Assembly (NCBI GenBank): GCA_963799845.1
Contig: CAWCYI010000006.1
Location: 1,248,001-1,312,000, forward strand
Direction of reading: 5' to 3'
From: an uncultured Nitrososphaerota archaeon
GTDB lineage: Archaea > Thermoproteota > Nitrososphaeria > Nitrososphaerales > CADDZS01
Length of the DNA: 64,000 bases
Positions within the stretch are counted from its first letter, which is position 1; each line of letters begins with the position of its first letter. Position numbers and translations under genes: made by a program. The notes under the pieces are model-generated. The model did no database searches, was not told the DNA's origin, and was given only the letters and a program-made list of their open reading frames with translations. This document shows, piece after piece, positions 4,248 to 60,149 of this stretch.

Positions 4248-5835
4248 ATGTCAAAACCAAGGGTAGCTGATTTTTTCCGGGCCAAATGCTACGGTTGCTA
4301 ACTCTCCACCCCTCGTAACAAGTAACAAAGCTAGACTTCCTGGAGAGAGATTAATTCCTGGTCGTTTCGATCATCTTGTTCCTCAGATACTTTATGAAAA
4401 AGTTAAGGTAAAAATTAAGAAATTTAGCGCGCATCCACTTGAGCAGGACGCGGCATCTGTTTATGCCGATGATAGAAAGGACTACTACGAGGTCGAACTC
4501 TCTCCCGACGATGGTCCCTACCTCCTTCCGTATATGGCAAGAAGATCGGATGGTACGAAGAACGGTACTCCCTTTGAGGCTGTCGACATGTGGAATCCAT
4601 TATTGGGGTTTGGCGGAAGGCAATTCTTCTATCCCGACGCTTCGCGAATTTTTGACGATATCAATAGGACGATTTCTGGAAGGGACGCAAATGGGGAGGC
4701 TAATGTTCTAGACCGACTGGCCGATTACGAATTCATCAGAGTTCTTCCTCCAGGTGGATTCACTGCCCGAGGTGAGATCTCGGGAGTACACTATTTCCCG
4801 TACAGACCAGAACCTATCGCAAAAATAATTAGAGCGGGAGACTTGGCGACCGCTGCAAATATAGTTCAAAGATCGATCTCGACCAAAGAATTCGAGGGCG
4901 GAATCTGGCTAGATGGAAGCCCGCAACTTGAGGAATCTCTCTACTGGCTATCGCTAATGATAGACACCGAGCTTCCTTTGGTAGGCGTTGCTGCCCAAAG
5001 GCCCCACGGCGAGCTAGCAAACGATGGCGATCGAAACATTGTCGATGCGGTAGAATACGTCGTGTCTGGCAAGGGAAAAGGCCTTGGAGGAGTTGGCGTC
5101 CAAGATCAAGTAATTTACGCAGCTCGGGAATTCAAAAAGGCAGATGCGCGGCCGGGAAATTACAAGGCAACTGGCGGCCACGGTGGAATACTGGGGTCGG
5201 TGAAGGCAGGGATAACAATCTGGTATCGCCCTAACTATAAACACACTTCAACGTCCGAGGTGAATTTGACGAGACTGCCAGACAAAGTGGTTTTTCAAGA
5301 TAAATTTGAAAGTTCTGACATGGTTTCGATTCAGATAAAAGACTCAGAAGGGTACCTTTTGAATTCAACTATTCCACGCGTCAGTATAATCAAGTATGCC
5401 AGCTATTCCCAAGATGATGAAAAGGGAGACCCGGATCAGGAGATAGAAATCATGGCGAGAATCTCGAAGATCGAGTCTGATAGATCAAATCCTCAGGCAT
5501 CGAAACTTCACGGCATTGTCTACGAAGGTCTATCTCCCTATGCGGTTGGTTCTGTCTCACAATTAAGAGCGCTGTGGATCGCCGCGTTCTCCGGGATCCC
5601 TGTAGTCAGAGTAGGCAGAAGTGATCCAGGAGGCCGAGTAATCACGGATCCTAATGATCCAACAATCGAAGGAAGTAACCTAGACTCGAACAAGGCACGA
5701 TTGCTCTTGATATCTTCCATGCTTAAGCTCGGCCGACTGCCGAGAGCAAGAGATCCGAGGAATCCTACAAATGAAGAGAGGAGAGCTGTGTCTGAGAAAG
5801 TCGCTGAATTCCAAGAAATATTTGAAACGCATTGA
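4248..5835 (+). CDS. Asparaginase-domain protein, about 528 aa, with a +1 frameshift at 4269 (probably a sequencing error)
   Basis: Removing G4269 joins ATG4248 (MSKPRVA) to IFSGPNATVANSPPLVTSNKAR..., in frame with ORF 4534..5835. Asparaginase-like motifs: LDGSPQLEE, GVAAQRP, DGDRNIVDA, SNLDSNKARLLL. Confidence 0.75.
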
Positions 5836-5927
5836 CTAGATGCAAGACTTATTTCCAAAAAAGCTCTGGCCCTCATTTGCTCCTCTTTTGTTAGGGCATT
5901 ATTGTCGAAAAAATTTTCCCAAATTGA

Positions 5928-7016
5928 TAGGAGTTACGCGGTTGACCCAAGAAGATAGATTGGGTGTGCAATGTAACTCCTTATCGCATCTCTGACGATT
6001 CTCGCCTTCGCTTCGTACCAGCTTATCCCGGTCATCAATCTGCACAATTCTAGACGTATGAACGCCCTTATTGACATGTGGATGTGATTCAGAATGGATG
6101 TCGCCTTCCTGACCTGAGCCCTCTCAATGCCACAACACTGCTTGACTCCTCTGTGGTACTCCTCGATTCCCCATCCTTGGTCAGAGAGTTCATCTCTCTT
6201 TTCCTCATTCATCCCAACGTCATCGGTAGCCCAGTGTTCAATGTCTCCTTTCTTGGAGGCTGTCCTGAACACCCTGACCATTCCGAATCCCATGAGATGA
6301 ACCGTGGTTCCCTCAGGCGGGATCTCCACGTCCTTGATTGGTTTGTTTCCTTTTTTTCTGCCCGTTGGATTGACGAGCCTGTTCTCCTTGAGGCGGCAGA
6401 AGAAATGCCACCCGAGCTCCCTTGCGATGAGCTTCAGATTTTCCATGCTCGAGTACCAGCTGTCAAAGAGGACGTATTTTGGTTCCATCCCTCTCTGCTT
6501 TGCAACCAACAACATGTCCTGGAAGTGATCGTTCTTGGTGAGACCGTCTTTTGACGCATTGTAGAGTCTAAAGTCACATGGAATGAGGGCGTTACCATCG
6601 CTCCATAGTGTTGTGATGAGATTTATCCCCTTCACCACACTGTGGTGTTTTCCGCTCCAGTGGTACGTGACGTAATCCATCTTCTCCGCGTACGGTTTGT
6701 CCAGAGTTGAATCATCGACTATCGGTACTCCTCCCGCAGTAACGGCGATGATCCTCTTCGCCTCATCCCAGAGCGCTTCTGTATCCGCAGGCAGTCTCTC
6801 CAGAAGGCGGGTGAAGCTATCGTGTGCTGGCGGCGTGACTCCTGCATCATCATCAGGCTGACATCTAGCAGCTTCGGTGCAAGCGAATGATTTCTGGGAT
6901 GCTATCAGGAAGTCTATGTAGTCATTGTCATCGCATTTTGGAGGGTTCATGCAGCGTCTGATGAACCAGAGAAACAATCCTGGCCAAATTCTTTTCGGCC
7001 AAATGCGTAACTCCTA
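5928..7016 (-). mobile_element. IS701-family insertion sequence, complete
   Basis: TIR TAGGAGTTACGC (5928-5939) / GCGTAACTCCTA (7005-7016), flanked by direct repeat ATTGA (5923-5927, 7017-7021). An alternative reading is an 11-bp TIR with 7-bp TSD AATTGAT. Confidence 0.9.
5934..6950 (-). CDS. IS701-family DDE transposase
   Basis: MNPPKC...YIDFLIA N-terminus; DDE motifs IVDDSTLDKPY, VLFDSWYSS, WGIEEYHRGVKQCCGIE. Confidence 0.9.
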   Translation of the reverse strand: MNPPKCDDNDYIDFLIASQKSFACTEAARCQPDDDAGVTPPAHDSFTRLLERLPADTEALWDEAKRIIAVTAGGVPIVDDSTLDKPYAEKMDYVTYHWSGKHHSVVKGINLITTLWSDGNALIPCDFRLYNASKDGLTKNDHFQDMLLVAKQRGMEPKYVLFDSWYSSMENLKLIARELGWHFFCRLKENRLVNPTGRKKGNKPIKDVEIPPEGTTVHLMGFGMVRVFRTASKKGDIEHWATDDVGMNEEKRDELSDQGWGIEEYHRGVKQCCGIERAQVRKATSILNHIHMSIRAFIRLELCRLMTGISWYEAKARIVRDAIRSYIAHPIYLLGSTA

Positions 7017-17323: not shown

Positions 17324-18499
17324 CAGTAGATGCGAATCAAGTATGCTTTTCTCGTATGTTAAATGACCCACTCATAATCAGACCGATGAGAGAGAGTTTC
17401 ATTTGTATTACTTCCACCGATTCGTTCGGATGGAGCAGCTCTTGGTTGGCATTGTACATGACCCACGAATTGTAGACAAGACATGCAAAGAGATAGTAGA
17501 ACAATCTTACCACGTAGTTCCTTGATGTTGTTTTTATCAGGAATTGATTTGACATTCGGTAGCTTGTCTCTATGCCCCAGCGGTTCTTGAATAGCCTTAG
17601 GATTGTTTCAGCTTTGTAGGGAAGATTTGTTGCAAACAGGTACTTGTAATCCTTTGTCTTGTCATATGCCACTACAACTTCAAACGAGGCTTGTTCAGAT
17701 TCCCTCCTCCTGTGTCCGCTAGTAGTGTACGTGAACCTCCTACCCTGCCAGAGCCTCATTTTCTTTGTCTTGTAGGTTGGAGCCATTCGCACGATGTACT
17801 TGAGTCCAGATTCCTCAAGAAATCTGAGTAGGTTTGTGTGAAAGAATCCGCCGTCAAAAACCAGATAGCGAATTCTTATTTTCAGCTCTTCTTGCAGTTT
17901 TCGCACAATTTGTGTGGTAGACGAGACAAGTTCCGAGCCTGATGCTAATCCTGTAACAGCTACGATCAGTCTTTCTCCATCTGCTAGAACAGAAGCTGTA
18001 AGGTACTTGAATGAATAATTGCTTCCGTCCCTGTGCATGGTTCCAATGACCATCGGTGTTTCTTCATGATTACCGTAGTACATGACATCATGCAGATCCA
18101 AAGCGACAGGGACTGGTACGCGTAATTTTCTTCTTTTTCTAAGATCCTTCACATTCCCGTCTATCAAATTATCGAAGATTTGTTTGACTCTCGCTTCTCT
18201 TTGTGATTTAATGTACGAAAGAAGAGTTTCTGCAGTCGGTGATTCGCCTAGAGATTTCGAAACACCTTCAGCAAATCCATTTACCAAGCTCGCCGAGATG
18301 AGCAGGTTTAGGTGTTCATTCTTGGAATAAATCGCTCTCTCCTTCAGCTCATATGTCAGCAGTCCTGAGATGTTTTTCTTTACGAATTCATACAGCTTTC
18401 TCGAATTGAACCTCAATTGGAACGTCGGAAACAAGCCCTAAGGCGGGCTGGCCATAATAATTGCGGCCGGAAATCGCCTAGATTCGTTCGCATCTACTG
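17324..18499 (-). mobile_element. ISH3-family (IS4 superfamily) insertion sequence, complete
   Basis: 13-bp TIR CAGTAGATGCGAA (17324-17336) / TTCGCATCTACTG (18487-18499); 4-bp TSD TTTA (17320-17323, 18500-18503). Confidence 0.88.
17337..18434 (-). CDS. ISH3-family DDE transposase
   Basis: VALDLHDVMYYG, YLVFDGGFF, RWGIETSYR. Confidence 0.85.
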   Translation of the reverse strand: MFPTFQLRFNSRKLYEFVKKNISGLLTYELKERAIYSKNEHLNLLISASLVNGFAEGVSKSLGESPTAETLLSYIKSQREARVKQIFDNLIDGNVKDLRKRRKLRVPVPVALDLHDVMYYGNHEETPMVIGTMHRDGSNYSFKYLTASVLADGERLIVAVTGLASGSELVSSTTQIVRKLQEELKIRIRYLVFDGGFFHTNLLRFLEESGLKYIVRMAPTYKTKKMRLWQGRRFTYTTSGHRRRESEQASFEVVVAYDKTKDYKYLFATNLPYKAETILRLFKNRWGIETSYRMSNQFLIKTTSRNYVVRLFYYLFACLVYNSWVMYNANQELLHPNESVEVIQMKLSLIGLIMSGSFNIREKHT

Positions 18500-43049: not shown

Positions 43050-43063
43050 TCGAACCAAAGATC

Positions 43064-43960: not shown

Positions 43961-45027
43961 TTCGAATGTTTGCCACTTTTCCTTTTCGCAGTAGTGCTTG
44001 ATTTCTTCTTCTGTGTGACCTGCTCGAAGTTTCGCAAGCCAGAGCTATGCGCTTCGTCGATCTCGCTGTAAGACTTTGGGCTATACTTAAGCCAAAGATT
44101 CGGCGGGTAGATTGTTGAATCGTACATCGACCTGAATAGTTCGGTTCTAATCTCTGCAAGGAAGTTCCATGGCGGCATTGATCTTTTCTTCCGCAATCTG
44201 TCAATGTCTATAGTAGCTGAGATTATGGTTTCGTTTGCAGAACTCGCTTCCGCGATAATTACTCCGTTATAGTCTACTATCATCGAGCTTCCCACCGAAT
44301 AGGAGACAGGGTGCGAACTATCCTTCATCCATGCTGCATTGGGTGCGACAAGATAACACAAATTCTCTTGTGCCCTCGCACGATTGATTACCGACCACCA
44401 GTCATTTGGAGGCGACATCCATGGCTCCATAGCAACTGAAGGCATGAGAAAGATTTCGGCTCCCTTTAAGGCGAAAGCCCTTGGGATTTCCGGAAAGTGT
44501 CGATCATAAGAGATGAAGCAGGCCAGGTTCCCAATTTCAGTCTTAAGAACTGGAAATATCTCTTCTTTGTAATCGGACAAAATATCATGGGGGCTTGTCG
44601 CAAGTGTAAGGTTCATGTTCGTTGTGCTTATCTTTCGGTATCTTAGGGCAACCTTTCCTCTCGGGTCGATAATGAAACCCGTGCTAAAAAACCTGGATGG
44701 ATAGTTGTCGTCGATCTCAAGCGCGTGCCCGCAAATATACAACCTGTTCTTCGTTGCAACTTCTGCAAGCCTGTCTGTCTCCTCGCCGGGAATCTTCACG
44801 CATATCTTGAAAAAATCAGCCTTGTTCTTGTAGTGCGATCCTTGCAAGAACCACTCCGGGAAGGTGACTATCTTGATTGGGTACGAGAGCGTAAAAAAGC
44901 GAAAAGTGGAAAGGTGCTCTAAAAGCTCGAGCGAACGAGAAAGATTTGCCTTTATGGGAGAAGGGTGTGTCTCCGTGGAAAACGCCACGTTCGGCTGTAC
45001 GCAAAATGCCTGATATGGTTCGACCAA
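43957..45027 (-). CDS. Nitrilase-superfamily protein with Ser at the nucleophile position
   Basis: FPEW, YRK, FISYDRHFPE (ICYD expected), RARAQEN. Confidence 0.8.
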   Translation of the reverse strand: MVEPYQAFCVQPNVAFSTETHPSPIKANLSRSLELLEHLSTFRFFTLSYPIKIVTFPEWFLQGSHYKNKADFFKICVKIPGEETDRLAEVATKNRLYICGHALEIDDNYPSRFFSTGFIIDPRGKVALRYRKISTTNMNLTLATSPHDILSDYKEEIFPVLKTEIGNLACFISYDRHFPEIPRAFALKGAEIFLMPSVAMEPWMSPPNDWWSVINRARAQENLCYLVAPNAAWMKDSSHPVSYSVGSSMIVDYNGVIIAEASSANETIISATIDIDRLRKKRSMPPWNFLAEIRTELFRSMYDSTIYPPNLWLKYSPKSYSEIDEAHSSGLRNFEQVTQKKKSSTTAKRKSGKHSN

Positions 45028-45119
45028 ATTGCCTGGGCACGCAAACCAGATTTTCGATCGGAGTCTCTATAACAATTTTGTGTCTAGCAATCCAAGACCT
45101 TTGACCTCATTGAACGGGA

Positions 45120-47481
45120 TTAGGCTGCGCCCTTCAGTCCTCTCAAAATCTTCTCTGGCACGAGTGGATAGTCTTTGATCCTCACTTTGACTGCATCGTT
45201 TATCGCGTTCGCAACAGCTGGACCTGTGACGATCAACGTGACCTCGCCAACCCCTTTGGCCCCATAGGGTCCGTCTGCACGATTTGATTCGACGATGATA
45301 GATTCTATTGTCGGGACTTCCTTTGCAGTTATCAGCTTATAGTTCAGGAAGTCGGAGTTGATCGGTTTTCCGTTATCAAAAACGAGCTCCTCGTAGACCG
45401 AGCCACTCAGTCCCATTGCAGTTCCCCCCTCTATCTGACTAATTACCCCTTGCGGATTGATAGCTCTCCCAACATCACAGGCATTGATGAAGTGGAGGAG
45501 TTTCAGCTGTCCCGTTTCGATATTGACTGCGACAACTGCGGCCTGAGCCGAAAATGAATAGAATGCACTAACTCTTTCCCCGAGCGCTTGCCCAGTTTCC
45601 TTGTCGGTTCCCTGCGCCCGCGTATACCAGGTAGCCTTACCCAGAATTTCTCCGCCGACGGGAAGGAAATATCCTACTTGGTTTAGCACCTCAAAGCAAT
45701 CTGTAATGGTGATGTACTTGTCCGGTGAGCCATTCTCAAAAATCCTCCCCTCCTTCGTTTCAAGCTTTATGGCAGATGTGCCAAGTTTCTTTGCTGCAAT
45801 TTCAAATAATTGACGCTTCGCGTCTTGACAGGCCAGACGTACGGCATTTCCTACATTGTAGGTTGATCTGCTCGAAATAACTCCATGGTCGTACGGCGTT
45901 ATCGCAGTATCGCAGCCAACGATCTTGATCTTATCCAATGGCATCTTGAACTCTTCACTTGCGACCTGGGCAAATGTGGTGAAAGAGCCTTGACCTATCT
46001 CAACGGTACTCGTCCGCACCTCGATTGTCTGGTCGTGATGGACCTTGACCAAAGCCGCTGAAACGCTTGGTGCCAGACTGTACTTGTTCCCGATCGCAAT
46101 ACCCTTGCCCATTCGCCAAGGTCCGTCTACGGTTTGCTCGAGCTTGTACTTAGAAAGAGAATTTCTTACTGCCGACAGGCACTCTTTTGCTCCAACAGAT
46201 TGCATCACTTCCCCCATTGCATTTTTTTCACCCTCGTCGAGGAGATTTTTCATCCTGAAATCAAACTTGTCCATTCCGATTTTTTCGGCGTCGACGTCCA
46301 TCTGCTGCTCTATCGCCGCTTGAACCTCGGCAGATCCGAATCCCCGAAAAGCGCCCCCCACCGGCAGATTGGTGTAGACGCAATAGCCGTCGGCTAGGAA
46401 GTTTTCGAACCTGTACGTGCATGCGGCGCCAAAAGACGCGTTTCTGGTGACAGCATAACTATCCTCTGTATATGCCCCCGTATTCAAAATATATCTCACA
46501 TAACGTGCCTTAATGGTCCCGTCTTTCGTAATTCCATCTTTAACGTAAACAATGAAAGGCTGTCTGACAACCGTGTTCGTAAATTCTTCTTCTCGCGTCA
46601 TTGTGATCTTTACGGGCCGCTTCGACTTTTTGGCGAGAACTACAGCGAATGGTTCAAGCTTCATCTGCGTTTTCCCCCCGAACCCGCCCCCCACTGGCGG
46701 GATGATTATTCTTATCTTCGAGGGAGGTATGTCAAGAGCGAAACTCATCTGAGTAAGCAAAAGGTAAGGCTGCTGGGCTGATGTCCAGATTGTAACATTT
46801 CCATCCGGCATTACTTCAGCTATGCAAGTGTGGACTTCGAGCGGTGCCTGCTGAATCATTTGCACCTTGTACGTATTCTCCAGGACATAGTCGGAGTCTC
46901 TTGAATCCAGAATCAACTTCTCCCTTCTTTATCCTCATGTGAGAAGCCACATTCGGCAGGTCCGGTTCATCCTTGCTGTATACCAAGGTCTTCTTGTAGG
47001 TACTCAACTCTGGATGAATAGCGACACGAGGATTGCGACCCATTGATTCCTCTGGGTTAAATATTGCGGGAAACTCCTCGTACTCTACATCAATTAGGTC
47101 AATTGCTTCCTCCGCGATATCCTCAGTATCCGCCGCGACAGCTGCTACCGGTTCTCCGATGTAACGAACTCGGTCCCTAGGGATGATCGCTTCGTCGTTT
47201 AGTCCGTATCCAAATTTCCTATCAGGAATATCCGCGCTCGTCATGATCGCGCGCACACCCTCGAGCTTCTCGGCTTTGCTCGTGTCAATTTTCAGAATCT
47301 TACCGTGGGCTACGGTACTCCTTTTGATTTTGGCGTACAGCATTTTCGGCAATTCCATGTCAAAAGTGTACTTTGTTTCTCCTCTGACTTTGTAGATTGA
47401 ATCTATCCGTGGCAGGGACTTGCCAACAGCATAGGTTTCTTCGGCCTTTTCAAATACTGAGACCGTTTCGAGGTTGCTCAA
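45120..47481 (-). CDS. Xanthine dehydrogenase-family molybdopterin large subunit (nicotinate dehydrogenase / 4-hydroxybenzoyl-CoA reductase alpha-like), frameshift at about 46897
   Basis: Removing T46897 joins ORFs 46816..47481 and 45120..46916 (..SGFKSSDYVLE..). Motifs: VGGGFGGK, AFRGFG, EIGQGS, GAKGVGE. Confidence 0.88.
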
Positions 47482-47521
47482 AACTTATCGAACACTATCC
47501 TACCCAACAGCGCGAATTTAA

Positions 47522-48133
47522 TTATTTTCGCTCGATGACTTCTATCTTTAATCTCTTTGCTTCGAACGCGTTGTATGCACTCAGTTCATCGGGACATGCG
47601 CTTACCGCGACGAGGCTGTCCATCTTTGCTTCCATTTCCACATAGTCACCCTGTTTCACTGGCGATTCCAAAAATTCGTAGGTACCGTCCTCGTGGAGTT
47701 TCGCGTTCATGAATAGGTTGACTACTTCTGGTACGTCAAAATCTGAAAGGCCGTATTCCTTTATGCAACCCGCAAGTATGTCCTGGCAATTCTTGTGGTA
47801 ACCATGGACTCCTTTGTTCATTTCATAACTGAAACGATTACACCGCCCGGGAGACAACCAGAACACTCCATCAAGTTGTGTGAGTACTTTGAACATCACG
47901 TTGCCAGCGGGAAGCTTGGTGTATAGATATTCCGCTTTGGTGAAACTGTGATTCAGGTGTCTGCTCAACCACGCAGAGAGAGACTCACGCATGTCGTGGG
48001 GGTTGAACGCAATCAAATCTGCTGCCTGGGGACCATCAATTGCGATCAATCTGAGAATCTGTCCTTTATTTACTCTGAAGGATTTTCCTTCGCATTTTGG
48101 AATGATTATCTCTTTCACGACTTGTTGCGACAT
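47522..48133 (-). CDS. DUF1989 family protein
   Basis: GQILRLIAIDGPQAAD, GRC, NCQDIL, VNLFMN, GDYVEMEAKMD.LVAVSACP. Start is probably ATG 48133. Confidence 0.85.
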   Translation of the reverse strand: MSQQVVKEIIIPKCEGKSFRVNKGQILRLIAIDGPQAADLIAFNPHDMRESLSAWLSRHLNHSFTKAEYLYTKLPAGNVMFKVLTQLDGVFWLSPGRCNRFSYEMNKGVHGYHKNCQDILAGCIKEYGLSDFDVPEVVNLFMNAKLHEDGTYEFLESPVKQGDYVEMEAKMDSLVAVSACPDELSAYNAFEAKRLKIEVIERK

Positions 48134-48600
48134 ATCAAAACATTTCCAATCCATAAAGCCCTTAAACGCATCGTGGAGCAAAACCGAGATTGACCCTTGA
48201 TTCGTTAACATTAATTGACGTCTAAAATCATGTTGAGATTTCGGTAATGGATTTTGTTTCTGCACCTTACAAAGTCAATATGATGCAAAACCGACTAGCC
48301 GAAATCATGAATCTGGTTGATGGCATAACTTTTGCGAAGCTCAAAGAAGGATATGATGCTCGGAGACTTTTACGCTTGAGCGCTTAGTCATACTCAAAAT
48401 CTACATCTAACAAAGAAACAGATCTTAATCGATTTTCTGTACTCGGCGCAATTTTTTTTCGTGAGATCCCTACCGAGCCCTTTAGGGCTGCTGTGAATGT
48501 GATCAAAATGTTGTCGCCCGAGCTTCTAAGCTGCTGCAGCTAACTGTCATCGTGCAGCCGTGGAATGCTAATAAATAGTGCAAACCGTTTCTATCCGAAC

Positions 48601-49962
48601 ATGCCCTTTGAGGATTTGAGGGAATTTCTAGATTTCCTCGATAAGGAGAAAGAGCTGGTCAGAGTTAACGATCCGGTCGATGCAAAATACGAAATATCGG
48701 CCTTCATAAGAAAGACTTGCAACACAGGGGGCCCTGCTATTTACTTTGAAAATGTTAGAGGGTATGATTATCCAGTTGTGGGTGGCATATTCTCAAAACG
48801 GAAGCGCGTCCTTGATGCGCTCGATGCAAACGAGCAAAATGTTATCGAAAAATTCGTTCAAGGTCTCACGAATCCGATAAAGCCGGAGATCGTAAGGTCT
48901 GGGGTATGTAAGGAAGAAATCTTTGTTGGGGAAAAAGTCGACCTTCTCAAATTACCAATACCGACGTATAGTGAGCTGGACGGTGGCCCTTTCGTTACGC
49001 TAGGCGCCGTAATAACCAAAGATCTGGAGACTCGAGTGAGAAACATTGGAATCTATAGGTGCCAGCTGAAAGGAAAGAGCAAGCTCTCAATCATGGCGCA
49101 GCATTCGCAGCATGCAATGGTGCATTATGCAAAAGCGGAATCGAGAAACCAGGCACTAGAAGTTGCAATAGCTATCGGACTTGATCCAGCAATAGTTCTC
49201 GCTGCTGGAGCAAAACTCCCTTACAATGTTGATGAATTCGATGTGGCCGGTGGGCTCCGTCAAACAGCTCTGAGGCTTGTAAAGTGCGAAACAGTGGACC
49301 TTGAGGTTCCAGCTTCTTCAGAGATCGTGATTGAGGGAAGAATACTCCCACATGTCAGGGAGGATGAGGGACCTTTTGGAGAATTCTCCGGTTACTATGC
49401 AGGAGGAGTCCTAAAAATGCCAATAATTGAAGTCTCTGCCCTTACGCAACGTGCGAACGCAATTTACCAAGCAGCAAATACGGGTGTCCCTATAACTGAG
49501 AACCATGTCATAAAAGAGATACCCTGGGAAGCAGCGACATTTTCTGATATAAGAAAGAAATATCCCGAAGTTAGGGCACTTCACTACCACCCGGCCGGAT
49601 GCGCTCAATTCTTGCTTTTTGTCTCCGTGAAGCAGAGGTACAAGGGACTCGCAAGAAACATAATCACGAGCCTGCTCGGGAATCCACTACCTCCTAAGAT
49701 TGTCGTAGTCGTTGATGAGGATATAGATGTATTCGATCTCAATCAGGTAGTCTGGGCAATTACCACGAGATCGCAGCCGGACGAGGACTTGATCGTGTTG
49801 AGCGGGATGGCTGCCGGGCAGCTGGATCCTTCAACGAAAGAGAATGAAATTTCTTCAGTAATGGGAATTGACGCTACACGACCTTTTGGAAAGAGCTTTC
49901 CAGAAGTTGTCAGCGTACCCGGAGTAGACAAAGTACCGGACTTCCAAAAGTACATTCGCTAG
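48601..49962 (+). CDS. UbiD-family decarboxylase
   Basis: DLREFL, DGGPFVT, NIGIYRCQ, EGPFGEFSGYY, VVVDEDIDVFD, MGIDAT. Confidence 0.92.
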   Translation: MPFEDLREFLDFLDKEKELVRVNDPVDAKYEISAFIRKTCNTGGPAIYFENVRGYDYPVVGGIFSKRKRVLDALDANEQNVIEKFVQGLTNPIKPEIVRSGVCKEEIFVGEKVDLLKLPIPTYSELDGGPFVTLGAVITKDLETRVRNIGIYRCQLKGKSKLSIMAQHSQHAMVHYAKAESRNQALEVAIAIGLDPAIVLAAGAKLPYNVDEFDVAGGLRQTALRLVKCETVDLEVPASSEIVIEGRILPHVREDEGPFGEFSGYYAGGVLKMPIIEVSALTQRANAIYQAANTGVPITENHVIKEIPWEAATFSDIRKKYPEVRALHYHPAGCAQFLLFVSVKQRYKGLARNIITSLLGNPLPPKIVVVVDEDIDVFDLNQVVWAITTRSQPDEDLIVLSGMAAGQLDPSTKENEISSVMGIDATRPFGKSFPEVVSVPGVDKVPDFQKYIR

Positions 49963-50130
49963 CACCATCCATCATTAAATGCAAAGAACCGCATTTCTTC
50001 GGTAACAAAAGTTGGTGTTTTTTCCCCCGGAAGAGGCTTTATCCCCCTATTGACTGTCAAATTTCCCAATCTTTCATAGTTGTCCCCTACGACGAAATGA
50101 CTAATAACGTCAGATGCATCATTCGGTAGC

Positions 50131-51516
50131 ATGCCGAAGGATCTACGAACATTTCTGCAGCAAATTCACGAAAACAATCCTGATGAGTATGTGGAGATCG
50201 AAAAGACAGTTGATCCACTTTTTGAACTCACGCAAGTGCTCCAAAAGTTTCAAAGTTTGGGAAGAAATCCCGCAGTCGTCTTCAATCACGTCGAAGGATC
50301 AAGACATAGGGTCGTGTCCAATGTCAATGCGAGCCTTCGCAAGTTGGCCGCTGCTTTTGATTCTGACGAACAGAACATGATGCAGGAGTACATAAAGCGT
50401 GAAGCGAATCTCATCCCCCCGATAGAGGTGGTGCGCGGGCTAGTTCAGGAGATTGTAATGACAGATGAGGCCGTTGATCTTGGTCTGTTACCGATTGTGA
50501 AAAATTGTGTAGGTGATAGTGGGCCATTTGTAAACGCTGGTGCAACAATCTCCAAAGATCCTGAATTAGGTCACTTTAATTCTGGAATATATCGAATGCA
50601 GGTCCATGATAAAACCCATCTTGGATTTTGCATTGAACCTCACAATAAAGTGTCGCACATATTCAACAAATACGAATCGAAGGGGGAGCCAATGGAAATT
50701 GCCTGCGTCTTAGGGCATCATCCTGCTTGTATAATTGCCTCACAATCAAAGCTTCCCTTCGGGACCGATACCTATGCAATCATGGGGGCATTGTTGAAAG
50801 AGCCGATCCGATTGGTAAAGGCAAAAACGGTCAACCTGATGGTACCCGCTGATGCTGAAATAGTGATCGAGGGAAAAATTCTACCCAAGGTTCGAAAAGA
50901 TGAGGGGCCTTATGGAGAGTACACTTGGACGTACGGGCCCGCAAAGCATAGCCCTGTTTTTGAGGTGACGGGCATCACCATGAGGAGAGATGCAATATAC
51001 CAACACGTCTTTGCAGCGAGACGCGATCACAATTACACGGCTCTTCTTCCCAGAATGGCTATTATTTACAACAAAGTGAAAGCTGCGATTCCCTCTCTTC
51101 GCGCAGTGCACATGCCTATAGGAGGATTGTGTCGTTTTGTCGCTTATATTTCGATTAAGAAGGAGTTCGAGGGGGCTGGAAAGAATGCGGCTCTTGTCGC
51201 CCTTGGTTCAGACCCTTTCATAAAGCAGGTCGTTGTCGTTGACGACGATATCAATATTTTCGATGAAACAGATGTTCTGTGGGCAATTGCAACTCGAACA
51301 CAGCCTGATCGCGCTATATTCATGATACCCGAAGCAGCTGGATCATGGCTGGACCCATCATCCTACACTATTGTTAGCAGGGCTGAAAGAGGACTGCTCA
51401 ATACGAAATGGGCAATCGACGCCACCAAGCCGCTCGCGATTCCTTTTCAGGAGAGAGCGGAGGTTGCGCCAGGCTGGGAGAAGATTGATCTCGACGCTTA
51501 TGTGAAAAGTCGCTAG
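50131..51516 (+). CDS. UbiD-family decarboxylase
   Basis: DLRTFL, DSGPFVNAG, NSGIYRMQ, EGPYGEY, VVVDDDINIFD, LDPS, IDATKP. Confidence 0.92.
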   Translation: MPKDLRTFLQQIHENNPDEYVEIEKTVDPLFELTQVLQKFQSLGRNPAVVFNHVEGSRHRVVSNVNASLRKLAAAFDSDEQNMMQEYIKREANLIPPIEVVRGLVQEIVMTDEAVDLGLLPIVKNCVGDSGPFVNAGATISKDPELGHFNSGIYRMQVHDKTHLGFCIEPHNKVSHIFNKYESKGEPMEIACVLGHHPACIIASQSKLPFGTDTYAIMGALLKEPIRLVKAKTVNLMVPADAEIVIEGKILPKVRKDEGPYGEYTWTYGPAKHSPVFEVTGITMRRDAIYQHVFAARRDHNYTALLPRMAIIYNKVKAAIPSLRAVHMPIGGLCRFVAYISIKKEFEGAGKNAALVALGSDPFIKQVVVVDDDINIFDETDVLWAIATRTQPDRAIFMIPEAAGSWLDPSSYTIVSRAERGLLNTKWAIDATKPLAIPFQERAEVAPGWEKIDLDAYVKSR

Positions 51517-51526
51517 CTACAGGGTT

Positions 51527-51958
51527 TCAAATCTTCGAAGAAATGCAATTCGCAAACCGACTCACAAAACCGTCTAGCTGATTCTTGATCACTTGGTTCA
51601 CGATCCATTGGAATGGTCCTTTCGCATCCAAATTCGCGACAAACTTGACCTGGGTTGAATTCTGAGCCTTCTCGCTTAAATCAAGACGAAACTCGCCGTT
51701 AATGTCACCATCGACACTTTCTATCTTTATCGCAAGCTGGTTTGGCTCCGTTCTCTGGATTATCTTTGCCTTTGCATCGATTCTTCGCGCAATGACTCCC
51801 ACAGAGATCTTTACTTTCCAACGCGACTCGACGTCGCTTATTACAGTCACCTGTTCACAACCAGGAACGCAGGCCCCAAGAACATTGGGATCATTCAGCG
51901 CTTTCCAAACACTTGAAAGAGATCCTTTAACCTCAAAATCCCGAGAAATTTGTGGCAT
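51527..51958 (-). CDS. coxG: CoxG / SRPBCC-domain protein
   Basis: VWKALNDPNVLGACVPGC; last gene of an L-M-S-G operon. Confidence 0.8.
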   Translation of the reverse strand: MPQISRDFEVKGSLSSVWKALNDPNVLGACVPGCEQVTVISDVESRWKVKISVGVIARRIDAKAKIIQRTEPNQLAIKIESVDGDINGEFRLDLSEKAQNSTQVKFVANLDAKGPFQWIVNQVIKNQLDGFVSRFANCISSKI

Positions 51959-52000
51959 AGTAACTTATCACATTGATGTTCAATGATCTAAATCAACTAA

Positions 52001-52478
52001 TTACCTCTTTTTGTTCGTTCGATAAATAACTTCTCTTATAGCATCGAGATACGGAATGTATCCGGTACATCTGCAAAGAACGCCGCAAAGGCCGTCCCGG
52101 ATTTCCTCTTCAGTTGGAGAACTATCGCTAGAATTTTCAATCAGAGCTTTTGAAGCTGAATAGCATGGCAGGAGTGCAATATCCACACTGCGGAGCGCTG
52201 TTCCTCAGAAAAGATTCTTGGAGCTCGTTGTACTTGCCTTGTTTTTGCAGGCCTTCAACTGTCATTACCGATTTTCCTTCTGCCTTCCAGAAGGGAGTCA
52301 TGCACGAGTATACACACTTCCCCTCCAACATGATCGTGCACATTCCGCAGCCACCAGAATCGCAACCTCTCTTGACCCCTGTCAAGTCAAGCTGGTTTCT
52401 GAGGACTTCTGCGAGGGAATCACCCGCTCCAGCATCGAGCAAACGTTCTTCATCGTTCACTCTAACTGATATTTTCAT
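52001..52478 (-). CDS. 2Fe-2S small subunit (CoxS/XdhC type), frameshift at about 52158
   Basis: GCDSGGCGMC..SC, QCGYCTP, LCRCTGY. Removing G52158 gives PAMLLASKALI. Confidence 0.88.
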
Positions 52479-52481
52479 TCT

Positions 52482-53372
52482 CTAACTCGCCGATTCCCTA
52501 CTCTGGGATCTCTCTAACGCGTACAGAAGCGCATCTCTCACCAAAACCGGTATCACCTTCTTCTTATACGCTGACGAAGCGTGTACAGAGGGAGTAGGTT
52601 CGAGCTCTAACGTAGCGACTTGCGCTGCTTGGACTATCGTTTCCTCGGAAGCATTTTGTCCCGCTAGAAATTCTTCCGCCCGTTTCGCCCTAATAGGTGT
52701 GCCCGCTACAGCACCGAGCGCGATTCTCGCTTCCATAATCGATTTCTTCTCGTTGTCCAGCATAAGTTTGGCGGCGACGTTCACCACGGCAAAGTCGACC
52801 GATGTTCTCCCAAGCTTCACAAAAGCGGCACCGCAATTTGGATAATCGCGAACTTGAATCTCTACGAGAAGATCTTCAGGACTGAGTGCAGTAATGAAAT
52901 AATCGATGAAGAAATCATCGATCGCAAGTTGACGTTCTCCATTATCGTTTGCGACTATCAACTTTGCATCCAACGCAAGAAGAGTCACAGGCATGTCGTA
53001 AAACGGGATACCACTGCACAGGGATCCACCAATTGTTCCCATGTTTCGGATCTGGGGTGGGGTAATTTTCTTTGCTGTTTCCCGCAATGCTAACCAAGGA
53101 TTTCTTGTTGTGAAATCTGACTTTGCTATACTGCTGAATGACACGGAAGCCCCTACTCTCAACAAGCTGTTTTCAAATATAATTCGATCGAGACTTAACC
53201 TACTAACATCAACCAGTTTGTCAACGTCGGCGAGCGCACCTTGTTTCGATAATTCATAAAGCGTTGTGTTGCCTGCTACAACTCTAGCACTGGGCCCATA
53301 TTCTCGGAGAATCTTCACGGCTTCAGAAATTGATGTTGGTTTCAGGACAATGGACGGATTATACGCGGGCAT
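52482..53372 (-). CDS. FAD-binding medium subunit (CoxM/XdhB type)
   Basis: VAGNTTL, QIRNMGTIGGS, DFAVVNVA, ARIALGAV. Confidence 0.9.
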   Translation of the reverse strand: MPAYNPSIVLKPTSISEAVKILREYGPSARVVAGNTTLYELSKQGALADVDKLVDVSRLSLDRIIFENSLLRVGASVSFSSIAKSDFTTRNPWLALRETAKKITPPQIRNMGTIGGSLCSGIPFYDMPVTLLALDAKLIVANDNGERQLAIDDFFIDYFITALSPEDLLVEIQVRDYPNCGAAFVKLGRTSVDFAVVNVAAKLMLDNEKKSIMEARIALGAVAGTPIRAKRAEEFLAGQNASEETIVQAAQVATLELEPTPSVHASSAYKKKVIPVLVRDALLYALERSQSRESAS

Positions 53373-53376
53373 TTTT

Positions 53377-55733
53377 TCACGCTCGATGATCAATGGCCGC
53401 GAGGATTCTTTCCGGAGTCATTGGAAGATCGTTAACCCAGACGCCCACGGCATCATGAATTGCATTTCGAGTAGCAGCCGCCGTCGGGAGGATTGAAGGC
53501 TCACCTACACTCTTCGCCCCGTATGGCCCGTCTTTGTAGGGAGTCTCTATGATTATTGGCTCGACTATGGGGGCGTCAACTGCCGTCAAAATCTTGTAAT
53601 CGGCGAGATTGGTATTCGAGATTCTTTGGTTTTCTATAACCATTTCCTCGCTCAGAGCTGCACTGAGTCCCATCATCACCGAACCAATTATCTGATTTCT
53701 GACGATCCCGGGGTTGATCGCCTTTCCAGCATCATGGGCAGCAACAATTCGATGCACGCGAACTACGCCAGTTTCAACGTTCACCGACAATTCAACCGCT
53801 TGGGCTACACTCACATAATAAGGAGAGACGCGCCCGCCAATCGCGTGTCCCGTTTCGGGATCCATCTCTGCTTCTTTTTTGAAGACAGATCCGTATCCGA
53901 TTAGTTCGCCACCTTCGGAGACCATACCAAATCTCCCGTAACCAAGCTTGGACCCCCTTGTAAATAGCTCGGAGATTGAGATAGACTCTTTCGGATCTCG
54001 TTTGGAGTAAATTCTTCCAGATTTTACCTCGATACTTTCTGGCGGAATTTTCAAACGCGTTGATGCAGCTTCAGCTATTCTCCTCTTCGCGTCATAACAG
54101 GCGAGCATCAAGGCTTTTCCGATGTTTACGAGCTGTCTGCTGGCAGAAGCGCCTTCGGAAAATCCGCTTGAGGCAGAATCAGATCCGTACACGAGAGGTA
54201 GAAGAATGATATCATTGCTCGATACTCCGAACTCGTTCGCAGCGATTTGAATTAGGCTTGTGTATATTCCCTGTCCATTTTCCACAGCATCTCAGCTGCA
54301 CTTCTATTTTCCCAGTGTCTCTCACACGGACCATAGCCTGATGAGGACCGCCCGCTGCCCACTTGGCGGCAAGTGCAACTCCCTTCCCTTTTCTCCACGG
54401 CCCAGTTTCCCGAACTCTCTTGCTGTACTCAATTGCGCTCGCAACTTCGAGTAGGCATCTCTCGTGGCTGATACTTTCCATTGTTTCTCCAATCGCATTC
54501 CTCTCTCCTTCGTGGATTACGTTGCGCAACCTGAATTCAACGGGATCGATTCCTAAAACAAAGGCATTGTACTCCATTTGGCATTCGATGGCCCAAACCA
54601 TCTGCAAACCCATCGGAGACCTCTTAGGAGTTCCCGGCACAAGATTCGTGTAAACGCGGTAAGAGTCAATACTCAAGTTAGGAATATTGTAAACATCGAT
54701 AGACTGCGAGCAGACCCTTTCTTAACAACCCATTACCTAGAGTCCCAAAAGCGCCTCCGTTGTAGATCGCTCTTATCTCCCGTGCTATTATCTTTCCTTC
54801 ATTCGTTACCCCATCCTTGATTCTAATGATTGAAGGGTGCCTGACACCTGTTGCGTTCATCGATTCTTCTCTCGATAGGTTTAGCTTAACAGGCCGGTGC
54901 GATTTCATAGCAAGCTTAGCGCAGATCGCTGCAATGTGCGACTCTTCTTTGCTTCCGAACCAGCCCCCCAAGAGCTGCACTTTGACTCGCACACGATAAG
55001 GATCTATTCCAAGACACCCCGCGACCTCGATCTGAGTCTTGTGAGCTCCGTGACTGGTGCACCAGATAGTCACTCCACCGTCCGCATCCTCGCTCGCAAG
55101 AAAAGAAAGCGGTTCTAGTTGGAAGTGAGATTCCATCTGAGTAGTGTATCTCTTCTCAATGACTTTGTCGGCTTTCGCGAAGGCCTGTCTGGTGTCACCC
55201 TGTCTAATTTTCAAATACCGACCCACGTTCGGGCGACTGTTATTTACACTCGGATGAGTGATTATCGTTGGAGGATTGTCAGACATCGCTATTTCCGGAT
55301 CAGACATCGAGGGAAGCTCTTCGTACTCGATGTCAATTGCATTGGATGCAGTTTCGGCGAGCTCATTAGTCTCCGCCGCTACAGCTGCGATGGCCTGATT
55401 TGCGTAAAGTGCCTCTTTGAATGCCAGCGGAGGAGTGTCCTCGTTGATTGGCGAGGGAAAGTCGTCCGGAGTTACTATTGCCCTAACACCAGGCAGCTCG
55501 GTCGCTCTAGAGACGTTGATATTTACGATCCTAGCGTGAGGATAGGGACATCTCTTTATTTTGGCAAAAAGCATTTTGTGCATTTTCATGTCGTGAGTGT
55601 ACACAAGCTTCCCTGTTACCTTCATTGCGAGATCGACTCGAGGCGCTGAGATTCCAATAAGTTTCTCTCGATCCTCGACGAGGAGTATGTTTTCTTGAGA
55701 ATGCATTTGATTTTTAGGCAGATTTCCGTCCAA
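53377..55733 (-). CDS. Xanthine dehydrogenase-family large subunit with atypical active-site loop, frameshifts at about 54693 and 54293
   Basis: Three ORF pieces join after single-base removals (..LLAAIDVYNIPNL..; ..EVQLDAVENGQG..). Motifs: LGGWFGSK, loop PKRSPMG, GAKSVGE. Confidence 0.85.
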
Positions 55734-56329
55734 TAAGAACTTTCTTCAGAGCAACGAAAAAATTAGTTCAGATTCACGATTTATTGAATAATCACATTTC
55801 CCGGCTATTCCTTTGGGATAACTGTCAGAGGCTTTTCTCGCATTACGACATAGGTTGTAGTCTTACCGCAACCAAAGGGTCAAAACAAACAAATGACTTC
55901 CTTGCCCACCACAAATGAAACATCATTTACAGCAGCTGACTTTGAACCCTTAACACATCTCTGGTGGGGTGTCTTGCATTAATGACGGGGGTTAAAGACG
56001 AGATTTACTTTTGTCCCTCTTTCAAGATAATCAATTAACTGCTAGACTCTGATTTTGATTTTCTATGATATTACATTTCATGGGGTCCCTTCTCGGCCTA
56101 AATCTTTGGGGATTTTTTCCGATAAATCCAGGCCAATATGCTACATTTCGTTCGGCAGACTTCCGAAGCAATCGTAGCAATACACATGATCCTTGATTCT
56201 GACTAAGTTCGAAGTCGTAAGTTGACTTCCACAGATTTCGCAGGTGAAGCTCTCCGAATCCATTTCTGTCGAATCTCTTCTCACTTGTTTATGAGGTAGA
56301 TCCTCGAGATTTGTTATCTTGGAGTTTCT

Positions 56330-57802
56330 TCATCTTACGTTAAGATGATTCAAAGGCGATTCAAGAATCGCATTTCTTCCGGCGATCCTCCCGGACGCAA
56401 GAGCTTCCGAGACGTTTCCATCGCTCTGGTAGATAATTCCCCAAATTGATCCTAGCTCACCTGCCGAGTAAAGCCGCTTGATTGGCTCTCCAAATGAGTC
56501 CAAAACTTGCCCCTTGTCGTTCCGTTTCGGGCCTCCCTGAGTGTTCAATAAAGAAGGCCAGAGCTCTATTGCGTAAAAAGGCGGATTATTCAGAGGCATG
56601 AGATCTGGTTTCCTTCTTCCAAATTCCTTGTCGTAGCCTAATTTGCAAGACTCATTGTAGACGTGTAATGTTCGCGACAAAAGTTCGGGGTTCAGACCGA
56701 TCTTATTTCCGAGATCAGCAAAATCGTATCCTTCGATAATCCAGCCCTTTTCCAACTCTTTCTTGTTGTCCACACTCCATTCTCCATAAAGCGACCACTC
56801 AGGGCATAATGTCTTCGATGATAAATTTGTATTGTCAAAAATCAAGTAACATGGAATCCTCGGATAATCTAGTGCTACAGGATCGAAATATGTAACTGAA
56901 AGGCACATGAGATGAGCTTCTATCTCTCCTTCGTTCACGAATCGCTTTCCATACTTATCCACGAAAACGAACGAAGACTTCGATAGTCCTAATGGAAAAG
57001 CATGGTCATATTCTGGTTTCTTAACGGCTGGATATCCCGCGACGCAATTCATGTGCCATAACGCGGCTCCTAGTTTGGCCGCCATCTTTATTCCATCTCC
57101 AGTGTTGGTGCGAGCACCAATCGCATAATATATCCCGCCAGGTAGGTACTCAGCCTTCAAATCTTCTGAATACTCAAACCCACCGCTTGCCAGAATTATT
57201 CCTCGCCTCGCTGCAAATCGAGCGATGGCGCCCTCGTCTTCAGCCTGGACACCGATGACTTCCCCAGAATTATTCGTTAGAAGCTGTGTCGCCCTAACTT
57301 TGAACAAGACTTTGATACCATTTTTTTTGACGTTTTCGTCCAATAGTCTGAAGAGATTTTGGCCACCACGATCGTGTCCCTTTACGCTGTAGATTCTAAT
57401 CGATTTAGCCCCTGGTAGTTTCGGATAACCGGGACCGGGCGGAAACTTCGGGTAACCCGGTGTCCCCGCAAATTCCGCGATTTCGCCCCCCAAGCTTTTG
57501 AGCCAATCGTTGTTCTTCGTGTTTTCAAGAGCAAAAGCTCTGATGAGATCTCTATCATCTTTAGATATGCGAGGCCCTTCCAGTTTTCTTATTGCTTCAA
57601 TGTAGTCGACCGTTGCCTCACAATCGTCTGAGCAAAAATATGCGTATGAAAGCCTAGTATTGCCTCCCGCAGCTTCTGCCTTCTCAAGGACGAGGACTTC
57701 AGCACCCCGACTAGAAGCCTCGATAGCTGCACTTGCCCCAGCTCCGCCATAACCTACAATGATCACATCCGCAATCAAATCCCAGCTTCCATTCTCGCCC
57801 AT
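56330..57802 (-). CDS. FAD-dependent oxidoreductase, fumarate reductase flavoprotein / 3-ketosteroid dehydrogenase (FAD_binding_2) family
   Basis: VGYGGAG, GGNT, LASGGFE, NTGDG, GKRFVNE, NTQGGP, LYSAGE. Confidence 0.85.
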   Translation of the reverse strand: MGENGSWDLIADVIIVGYGGAGASAAIEASSRGAEVLVLEKAEAAGGNTRLSYAYFCSDDCEATVDYIEAIRKLEGPRISKDDRDLIRAFALENTKNNDWLKSLGGEIAEFAGTPGYPKFPPGPGYPKLPGAKSIRIYSVKGHDRGGQNLFRLLDENVKKNGIKVLFKVRATQLLTNNSGEVIGVQAEDEGAIARFAARRGIILASGGFEYSEDLKAEYLPGGIYYAIGARTNTGDGIKMAAKLGAALWHMNCVAGYPAVKKPEYDHAFPLGLSKSSFVFVDKYGKRFVNEGEIEAHLMCLSVTYFDPVALDYPRIPCYLIFDNTNLSSKTLCPEWSLYGEWSVDNKKELEKGWIIEGYDFADLGNKIGLNPELLSRTLHVYNESCKLGYDKEFGRRKPDLMPLNNPPFYAIELWPSLLNTQGGPKRNDKGQVLDSFGEPIKRLYSAGELGSIWGIIYQSDGNVSEALASGRIAGRNAILESPLNHLNVR

Positions 57803-57942
57803 TAGATTACGGATCTTTTCCTCGATAATGCCAAGCTTTTGAAGTTACCGAAAATACGGTGCTAGGTTACGTGATTCTTTTCTTGCTATCCCTAGTAACT
57901 TCAAAGATCTTTAATAATAATTGAAACAGTTTCTCGCAGGCC

Positions 57943-58566
57943 GTGAAAAAACAAGAGATACCAATCGAAGGTCTATACGGGAAGCGTTTTTTTCCTCCGA
58001 CGCCCGTTTGCATAGTTTCCGCGGTGAATGAGAAAGGCTGGGCGAATATCGCACCGGTATCTCAGCTGCTTTATTTGAGCTATCATGGCAGCGGAATCCC
58101 GAAAGCTCTGATTATCGGATTATCTTCGTATCACGACGGGAAGCGAAAGGTCATGAGAATTTACCAGAACATACTTGAGACAAGGCAGTTTGTGGTCAAC
58201 ATTCCTCCCAGCAGTTTGGCAGAAACTATGAACAAACTAACAAAGGCATATCGAGACGGGTTCGATAAGTTCAAGGCCTTTTCGCTCACGTCAATTCCAT
58301 CTCTCAGGGTAAAGCCGCCGTCCGTGAAAGAATGCACAATACATCTCGAATGCGAGATGATTGCTCAGGAGTACTTAGGTTTCCAACATGACATCATCTT
58401 GGGCAATGTTGTCGCAACAAGAGCTGATGAGAACCTTTTGAAATGTAAGGATGAGGACCGAGTAACCCTCATGAATCCGGTGTACTGGTATGGAGTGTCT
58501 CCAGCCTATGGGAAGTATTACACAATCGGATCCGCTGTCGGAAATAGAGTCTTAGATAACGAATGA
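57943..58566 (+). CDS. Flavin reductase-like FMN-binding protein
   Basis: NIAPVS, NILETRQFVVNIP, VKPPSVKEC..HLEC, HDIILG.V. Confidence 0.85.
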   Translation: MKKQEIPIEGLYGKRFFPPTPVCIVSAVNEKGWANIAPVSQLLYLSYHGSGIPKALIIGLSSYHDGKRKVMRIYQNILETRQFVVNIPPSSLAETMNKLTKAYRDGFDKFKAFSLTSIPSLRVKPPSVKECTIHLECEMIAQEYLGFQHDIILGNVVATRADENLLKCKDEDRVTLMNPVYWYGVSPAYGKYYTIGSAVGNRVLDNE

Positions 58567-58724
58567 ATAACAGATTTGACTTTCCAAATGTGGAAGATGG
58601 GGCCCAAGAATCATGACAGGCCCTGCGGAATAACTCTTCTTAGGGCATATCGACAGTACTTTTTCCCGTTTTTCCTGGTGAAAGTCATGCACTACAATCG
58701 TACTTGATATCGGGTGCTGATTGG

Positions 58725-60149
58725 ATGGAACACAAGTGGACTGTTGTAGTGATTGCATCAATGGGCACATTGATGGCGGGGATCGACGGAAGAATTATCG
58801 TTATTGGGATTCCCACAATAGCCAATCAGCTGCATGCGGAAGCTGATCAGGTGATTTGGATCAGTCAAGCGTATCTGCTTGCGAGCACTGTCGGCCTCCT
58901 ATTCAGCTGGTCGGCTCTCGGATATCTATGGAAAGGTCAGGCTCTACGTTATTGGATTTCTCTTATTCACAATCGGGTCTGCTATTTGCTCATTGTCCCA
59001 GAATTTTTCAGAGTTAATCATGTTCAGAGTCGCGCAAGGGATCGGAGCAGCCGTTCTCATGACTAATAGTTCGGCGATAGTTACCGATGCAGCTCCGAAA
59101 GGAGAGCTTGGAAAGATGCTGGGCATCAGTCAAACCTCTTGGCGAGTAGGATCGATTGCCGGGTTGACACTTTCGGGAATTATTCTTTCGATAACGAGCT
59201 GGCGAGGACTGTTCTATGTGAACATACCAATTGGAATCATTGGTACCATCTGGTCTTATTACAGACTTCGAGACACGTCAGTCAAAGATTCTTCAAAGAA
59301 GATTGACTGGTCTGGCTTATGTTGCTTCTGCGTCTCCCTTACGACGATACTGCTCTCATTGACATACTTCAGCTGACGGCCCCTCGGGCTACCTCGGAGG
59401 GATTGGTCTACTGTTCGCGGGCATCCTTTTGTTGGGGATCTTTCTGAGGATAGAAACGAGAACTCCTCAGCCGTTAATTGACTTGACATTGTTTAAGAAC
59501 CGAGTATTTGCGACCGGTAACATCGCGCAGCTGCTGAACGCTCTAGTGTGGGGAGCGATTATTCTTCTGATGGCATTTTATCTCCAGATAGGTTTGGGGT
59601 ACGGGAGCTCTAGAGGCAGGTTTGGCGATAGCCCCCCTCGAAATTACTTATGTAGTGGTATCAGTTGTTTGTGGAAGGCTCTCCGACAGATACGGCTCGG
59701 TAATCCTTTCAACAGCCGGTTTGATAACAATAACTTGCGGCCTGCTCATTTTGTCGCTGTTCAATGGAGAAACAAGCTACTTGCAGATAGCAGTAGGCTT
59801 GTCAATTCTCGGAGTAGGAAATGGCATGTTTACCTCGCCAAATTCGAGTGCGATAATGGGATCAGTTCCAGCCGACAGAAGGGGTATTGCGTCCGCTTTC
59901 TGGAATATGATGTTTCAAATAGGATTGACTGCAAGCTATGGACTGGCTGTCCTAATGATTGCATCAGTCGTACCATACAATGCATTCTCGACCCTCCTTC
60001 AGGGTTCTATTGCGAGCTCAGTTGCATCCATTGCAAGAAACGAATTCTTTAATGGCTTCAGACTGGTGACGCTAATATTTGTCGCAATTGATTTGGCTGC
60101 GATAGGGATTGTCTTTGCAGGCTCTCGCGCACGGATTATTCGTTATTGA
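58725..60149 (+). CDS. MFS transporter (DHA2/EmrB-like), frameshifts at about 58904, 59375 and 59605
   Basis: WISQAYLL, GRLSDIYG, RVAQGIG, WRGLFYVNIPIG, PLIDL.LFKNR, PNSSAIM spread over four frames; each break is fixed by one base. Confidence 0.85.

Follow-up and report, generated by a model that had tools for sequence, protein, structure and literature searches.

One-base gene breaks at AGCT in the assembly of an uncultured Nitrososphaerota archaeon are consensus errors, probably caused by modification of AGCT

Gene breaks in the window

The stretch of DNA analysed here (the window) comprises 64,000 nucleotides, positions 1,248,001 to 1,312,000 on the forward strand of contig CAWCYI010000006.1, in the assembly GCA_963799845.1 of an uncultured Nitrososphaerota archaeon. 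It has a G+C content of 46% and carries 314 AGCT sites, or about one per 204 bases, compared with 247 predicted from base composition. Genes for an asparaginase-like protein, an amidohydrolase, CoxL-like and CoxS-like molybdenum hydroxylase subunits and an MFS transporter are interrupted in this window by single extra or missing bases. A preliminary description, made from the sequence alone, had listed ten such breaks in otherwise intact genes and had placed nine of them in or beside AGCT. All ten are present in three-frame views, and the nine at AGCT were confirmed, eight by contigs from accurate reads and the remaining one, at 4269, by orthologues. Consensus errors of the assembly, and not mutations, account for the one-base breaks at AGCT; at the eight genic sites checked with contigs, the genes are intact.

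For the comparison with accurate reads, contigs of three runs (X1, X2 and X3) were used, representing three samples of one public soil-metagenome study. Run X1 contains 94% of the words sampled from the window, and the X3 contigs carry transposase-type adapter remnants at their ends, which we take to be the sign of a short-read library. Contig alignment was confined to window positions 41900-61899, with sites 4269 and ~62203 lying outside this stretch. Frame switches were detected by tblastn of the genome's own long open reading frames (ORFs), serving as paralogues, against the window, and the affected gene families were identified by Pfam. The paralogue search returned ten frame-switch clusters in the window, eight of which coincide with breaks (41.9k, 46.9k, 52.1k, 54.29k, 54.7k, 58.9k, 59.38k and 59.6k). 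The clusters at 6455 and 17938 were rejected as window breaks, near-identical transposase copies elsewhere being themselves shifted. The breaks, together with two further differences found in the contigs, are listed below in the order of their coordinates.

4265-4270: AGCTGA with one base extra, in an asparaginase-like gene (+ strand, start 4245, to 5835; Pfam Asparaginase) whose first seven codons are cut off from the rest; seen in the frames.
41974-41981: A5 stretch that ends in AGCT and is one A short, in an amidohydrolase gene (41620-43049, + strand; Pfam); X1, X2 and X3 add an A behind 41973, and paralogues show a frame switch.
46895-46899: AG[T]CT in which T46897 is surplus, in the large-subunit gene of a CoxL-like molybdenum hydroxylase (45120-47481, - strand; Pfam); X1 omits 46897, and eight paralogue queries agree.
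48364-48368: AG[A]CT in which A48366 is surplus, intergenic according to the ORF list; X1 omits 48366.
52154-52159: AGCTGA with an extra G at 52158, in a CoxS-like 2Fe-2S subunit gene (52001-52478, - strand; Pfam); X1 and X2 omit 52158, and a frame switch is seen.
52229: substitution, T in the assembly and C in X1, X2 and X3, five bases after the AGCT at 52221-52224 and just before GTAC.
54292-54297: TCAGCT in which C54293 is surplus; a CoxL-like gene (53377-55733, - strand; Pfam) is interrupted twice, first here; X1 and X2 omit 54293, and a frame switch is seen.
54701-54705: AG[A]CT in which A54703 is surplus, interrupting that CoxL-like gene (- strand) again; X1 and X2 omit 54703, and 12 paralogue queries agree.
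58903-58908: TCAGCT in which C58904 is surplus; an MFS transporter gene (58704-60149, + strand; Pfam MFS_1) is interrupted three times, first here; X1 and X3 omit 58904, and a frame switch is seen.
59371-59376: AGCTGA in which G59375 is surplus, interrupting the MFS gene (+ strand) for a second time; X1 and X2 omit 59375, as the frames and a frame switch also indicate.
59603-59609: GGG run abutting AGCT, one G extra, the third break in the MFS gene (+ strand); X1 and X2 omit 59603, and a frame switch is seen.
62174-62217: interval in which a CoxS-like gene (62143-62627, + strand; Pfam Fer2_2) is one base short, from the frames and the N-termini of paralogues in the same genome; outside the read-aligned stretch.

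Comparison with accurate reads and orthologues

Over 41900-61899, the contigs differ from the assembly by nine one-base indels and one substitution, and by nothing else. Seven of the nine indels are supported by two or three runs, and at 46897 a clipped X2 contig end agrees with X1. All nine lie in or abut AGCT, whereas only 3.2% of the positions in this stretch are in AGCT or within one base of it; simple arithmetic from this proportion gives a probability of about 3e-14 for nine out of nine by chance, in keeping with the earlier view that a coincidence was unlikely. The preliminary description had also suggested checking its sites with accurate reads, and the X1-X3 contigs lack the indels at eight of them. 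The breaks were attributed to assembly errors because the accurate-read contigs are free of all nine indels.

The individual events proposed earlier survived this comparison almost without change. Four of the five events of the form AGCT[G]A (52158, 54293, 58904 and 59375) were verified by the contigs and the fifth (4269) by an orthologue, and the extra G at 59375 creates the TGA that terminates the ORF at 58879-59376. The AG[T]CT event, reconstructed at 46895-46899 because it restored the frame, is borne out by X1, which omits the T. The AG[A]CT event was likewise correctly reconstructed, but its coordinates had been given ten bases too low, at 54691-54695. Both homopolymer slips abutting AGCT (41974-41981 and 59603-59609) are corrected in the contigs as proposed. 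The indel at 48366 was absent from the first list, since its position between genes makes it undetectable by frame reading.

At site 4269, an orthologue from the same genus (89% DNA identity) is one base shorter directly behind AGCT, and in the orthologues of five further relatives the short N-terminus reads in a single frame into a conserved FSGP segment. This comparison includes loci of the unpublished genome G001, and its result stands on genomes G002, G003, G006 and G014 alone. No genuine frame break in the DNA of the organism was found at the eight genic sites covered by contigs or at site 4269.

The tenth break, near 62203, had been described as the one exception to the AGCT pattern. It is real in the frames, and the interval 62174-62217 contains no AGCT; candidate sites are a GGGCCC (about 62200-62205) and an A4 run, and the paralogue N-termini are compatible with either. 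A DNA search of five same-genus genomes for an orthologue of this region returned only short, weak matches. The earlier claim that the apparent pseudogenes are intact genes thus holds at eight of the ten sites by contigs and at a ninth (4269) by orthologues, with ~62203 lying outside the read cover. The window contains 14 ORF junctions flanked by halves of at least 100 codons each, five of which are sites of the first list and nine of which look like ordinary gene boundaries; three of these nine fall within 41900-61899 and show no indel in the contig comparison.

These results bear directly on two other explanations. If the indels were real, arising by AGCT-specific mutation or slippage or in a hypermutated strain, the broken genes would be genuine pseudogenes. 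The breaks are indeed present in the deposited assembly, and ~62203 falls outside the read comparison. However, this explanation is refuted for nine sites by the contigs of three runs of the same study, which lack all nine indels and show a single substitution in 20 kb, whereas a strain difference would be expected to bring substitutions as well. In addition, several genes carry two or three breaks yet are otherwise conserved. Real indels are therefore considered very improbable. Programmed recoding, by ribosomal frameshifting or transcriptional slippage at AGCT-containing signals, could be suggested by the five-fold recurrence of the hexamer AGCTGA. It is refuted by the absence of the extra and missing bases from the accurate-read DNA contigs, which leaves nothing to recode; moreover, one of the nine sites (48366) is intergenic, and the hexamer is found in both orientations with respect to the gene (48 AGCTGA and 41 TCAGCT windows). 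Recoding is hardly credible as an account of these breaks.

Frequency of errors at AGCT

Within 41900-61899, about nine of roughly 109 AGCT sites (about 8%) are wrong. Four of the 20 AGCTGA/TCAGCT words in this stretch are errors, and 25 true AGCTA/TAGCT words are intact. The genome as a whole contains 20,817 AGCT sites. The errors fall almost exclusively on AGCT and are of three kinds: a G inserted where AGCT is followed by A, turning AGCTA into AGCTGA; an A or T inserted at the centre of the site, turning AGCT into AGACT or AGTCT; and a miscounted homopolymer in contact with AGCT.

Genome-wide association of frameshifts with AGCT

For a genome-wide set, the ORFs of the 4.6-Mb genome were compared all against all by tblastn, which yielded 341 frame-switch clusters, of which 190 remained after a filter on ORF geometry and score. 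Four-mers were counted in these paralogue-supported frameshift windows and in control windows shifted by 300-600 bases. AGCT ranks first among the 256 4-mers, with 138 occurrences versus 72.5 in the shifted controls, and 98 of the 190 frameshift windows contain it, versus 56 in the controls. Removal of duplicates reduced the 190 windows to 171, with AGCT in 96 of them (control mean 53.4, range 46-62). Among 6-mers, AGCTGA/TCAGCT clearly leads, occurring in 56 of the 171 windows versus 8.9 in the controls (range 6-12), and other NNNTGA words show no comparable enrichment. The preliminary description had proposed testing AGCT against other palindromic 4-mers across the genome, and only AGCT stands out; GATC (80 versus 66.5) and TCGA (66 versus 74) are not notably enriched. 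The artefact is thus linked to AGCT throughout the genome, with the same exact signatures.

GGCC (49 versus 31.0) and GGGG (64 versus 42.2) are mildly enriched in the frameshift windows. G/C homopolymer errors may explain this enrichment, as may a second modified motif, and the non-AGCT break of the window may lie at GGGCCC.

The direction of the errors was examined at 1,030 ORF junctions with each half of at least 100 codons, 545 of which need one base removed and 485 one base added. AGCTGA/TCAGCT occurs at 81 of the 545 remove-one junctions versus 22 of the 485 add-one junctions, and for A or T runs at AGCT the direction is opposite, with two remove-one versus 14 add-one junctions. This bias matches the error model base for base. 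When junctions were counted by ORF geometry without homology, the AGCT enrichment was only 1.41-fold, because true gene boundaries dilute such a count.

Repeated sequences give a separate view of the same errors. Among repeat copies at least 98% identical, 14 private indels of two bases or fewer were found, ten of them at AGCT, and the sister copies are uncorrupted. These ten comprise four AGCT[G]A, two AG[A/T]CT, three indels in short homopolymers in contact with AGCT and one G immediately 5' of the site. Near-identical transposase copies with private AGCT indels beside sister copies without them speak again against real mutations.

The organism and AGCT modification in its relatives

The small-subunit rRNA of the genome is archaeal, and the organism belongs to the Thaumarchaeota (Nitrososphaeria), in the same order as the ammonia oxidisers of that group. 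Of four same-order relatives searched, two carry archaeal amoA (E-values 1e-105 to 1e-107); the genome itself, at 4.6 Mb and a completeness of 86.7%, gave no amoA match. The preliminary description had mentioned N4-methylcytosine (m4C) at AGCT as reported in Thaumarchaeota, and published methylomes agree with this statement. In a Nitrosoarchaeum genome, AGCT carries m4C at 96% of sites, in addition to N6-methyladenine (m6A) at GATC, and the methylation is attributed to an orphan type II enzyme, M.NspBD3I (PMC6329791). Two marine Thaumarchaeota metagenome-assembled genomes (MAGs) have 82-91% of their AGCT sites modified (PMC8919816), and a review table adds M.Nca01I and M.TarMY3I as further thaumarchaeotal AGCT m4C entries (PMC11033074).

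DNA methylase genes of the genome

The methyltransferase search suggested earlier was productive in part, returning 12 matches to the N6_N4 methylase family in the genome, none of which could be assigned to AGCT. A search for the C5 methylase family found no match in the genome, which weakly argues against 5-methylcytosine at AGCT. Three of the 12 N6_N4-family genes carry an SPP[YF] motif, which we take as a mark of N4-cytosine enzymes. Candidates for the AGCT enzyme are the methylase genes at C8:12137-12907, C6:1380725-1381642 and C4:1979761-1980627 and the conserved gene at about C4:1427655-1428320. The genome encodes many DNA methylases besides any AGCT enzyme.

The candidates were compared in several ways. 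NCBIfam returned only generic adenine-methylase models below their cut-offs, and comparison with solved structures gave generic beta-class matches only. Identification of the AGCT enzyme by elimination among relatives failed, the amoA-positive relative G019 having no Dam-family (PF02086) match.

Several methylase loci were noted in their own right. Two adjacent Dam-family (PF02086) genes lie on contig C5 (11711-13331). Contig C4 carries three N6_N4-family methylases of 616-653 aa with a DPPF motif (33901-35847, 210552-212513 and 213679-215529), two of which are 1.2 kb apart. At C4:1977992-1980627, a methylase gene of 433 aa (DPPY, with a long N-terminal extension) adjoins one of 288 aa (SPPF), and this pair may be a mobile or viral methylase module. 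Another DPPF gene, the one conserved with order-level relatives, is split in the assembly (locus L017, contig C4:1428100-1428200 of G000, - strand), with the frame switch at AGCTGA; the split is probably an error of the same type, leaving the gene intact.

Origin of the AGCT errors

We propose that the breaks are long-read consensus errors, most likely from Oxford Nanopore data, that they are caused by modification of AGCT and that the genes are intact, and we assign this full reading a probability of about 0.8. The contigs of 2.1 and 1.75 Mb, recovered from a soil metagenome, imply long reads. The archaeon would modify AGCT on both strands, probably to m4C as in its ammonia-oxidising relatives, and the modified base would distort the signal such that one base is gained or lost in basecalling and consensus at a minority of AGCT sites. 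Modification of AGCT in this organism, its nature as m4C and a nanopore origin of the assembly are all inferences.

The errors could instead be tied to the AGCT sequence itself, arising in the basecaller, assembler or polisher with any DNA and without base modification. The measurements made here, including the error rate of about 8% of AGCT sites in 41900-61899, are allowed by either model, and the failure to assign a methylase to AGCT also leaves room for it. However, AGCT alone stands out among the 16 palindromic 4-mers, with words of similar composition at lower ratios to the controls (TCGA 1.03, GATC 1.26, AATT 0.82). Repeats and homopolymers are the generic contexts of long-read errors, and AGCT is neither. 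It is, moreover, a documented methylation target in Thaumarchaeota. An effect of sequence context alone is therefore judged quite unlikely.

Several observations weigh against errors caused by AGCT modification. The contig cover over 41900-61899 has gaps, in which additional errors could be hidden. AGCT accounts for only about one third of the frameshift windows (96 of 171 versus 53 expected), and other error sources or false windows must therefore exist. The sole methylase conserved with order-level relatives (43% identity to those in G013, G015 and G019) carries a DPPF motif, which presumably denotes adenine rather than cytosine methylation. Attempts to link a methylase to AGCT by NCBIfam, by solved structures or by elimination through relatives gave no assignment. 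A literature search on AGCT indels found no paper describing them. The methylation errors reported by Lohde et al. (2024, Genome Research, PMC11610573) are A/G and C/T ambiguities, that is, substitutions, and the words 'indel' and 'insertion' are absent from the main text of that paper.

Mobile elements and molybdenum hydroxylases

Two DDE transposase genes (Pfam DDE_5/DDE_Tnp_1) lie in the window, at 5934-6977 (- strand) and 17337-18434 (- strand), and both belong to multi-copy families. The former has at least eight other copies at 99.4% protein identity or more, and the latter has three copies at 97.8-100% and more at about 83%. The genome is rich in recently active insertion sequences. In addition, molybdenum hydroxylases of the CoxL/CoxS/CoxM type have undergone a very large expansion, one CoxL fragment having 22 matches in the genome and similar numbers in same-family relatives. 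Several operons of this type occur in the window (29345-34804, 45120-47481, 52001-55733 and 61259-62627). An Rfam scan of the window gave no match.

Implications

At least seven genes of the window should be annotated as intact, namely those encoding the asparaginase-like protein, the amidohydrolase, two CoxL-like proteins, two CoxS-like proteins and the MFS transporter; for the CoxS-like gene at 62143-62627, the break has no read cover. Across the genome, gene breaks with the same signatures number on the order of a hundred or more, and AGCT errors probably depress the completeness estimate of 86.7%. A methylation motif can be guessed from an assembly alone, and the three error signatures can serve as targets for polishing. 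The kind of artefact and the link of the motif to this phylum are already known, and the findings are not new biology; the exact indel signatures may be undocumented.

The results hint at, without proving, AGCT methylation in thaumarchaeotal lineages other than the ammonia oxidisers. A further, rather doubtful idea is that AGCT modification is an older trait of the whole order that was kept in this large-genome lineage, and that the indel signature could mark a modification on which basecallers were never trained, either m4C or a bulkier one. If this were true, error footprints in public long-read assemblies could reveal the methylation motifs of uncultured microbes without raw data.

Comparison with known systems

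The breaks resemble ordinary homopolymer-length errors at three of the ten sites (41974-41978, 59603-59605 and probably about 62200). Unlike such errors, however, they involve runs of just 3-5 bases, two of the three touch AGCT, and long homopolymers elsewhere in the 20 kb show none.

A closer likeness is to the nanopore bacterial assemblies of Lohde et al. (PMC11610573), in which systematic errors fall on a short, strain-specific pattern, are not seen in the organism's Illumina data and are blamed on modified bases disturbing the signal. Unlike that case, for which no literature motif is named, the errors described here are frame-breaking one-base indels on a clean 4-base palindrome, in an uncultured soil archaeon from a metagenome assembly.

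The AGCT m4C methylomes of Thaumarchaeota share with the present genome both the 4-base word and the archaeal group, at the level of order or class. M.NspBD3I, M.Nca01I and M.TarMY3I are orphan type II methylases, and AGCT is not depleted here (314 sites versus 247 expected), as would be expected without a cognate nuclease. In contrast to those methylomes, which were obtained by PacBio kinetics from ammonia oxidisers with genomes of 1.5 Mb, the genome considered here measures 4.6 Mb, no amoA was found in it, and its modification is deduced from the footprints of errors.

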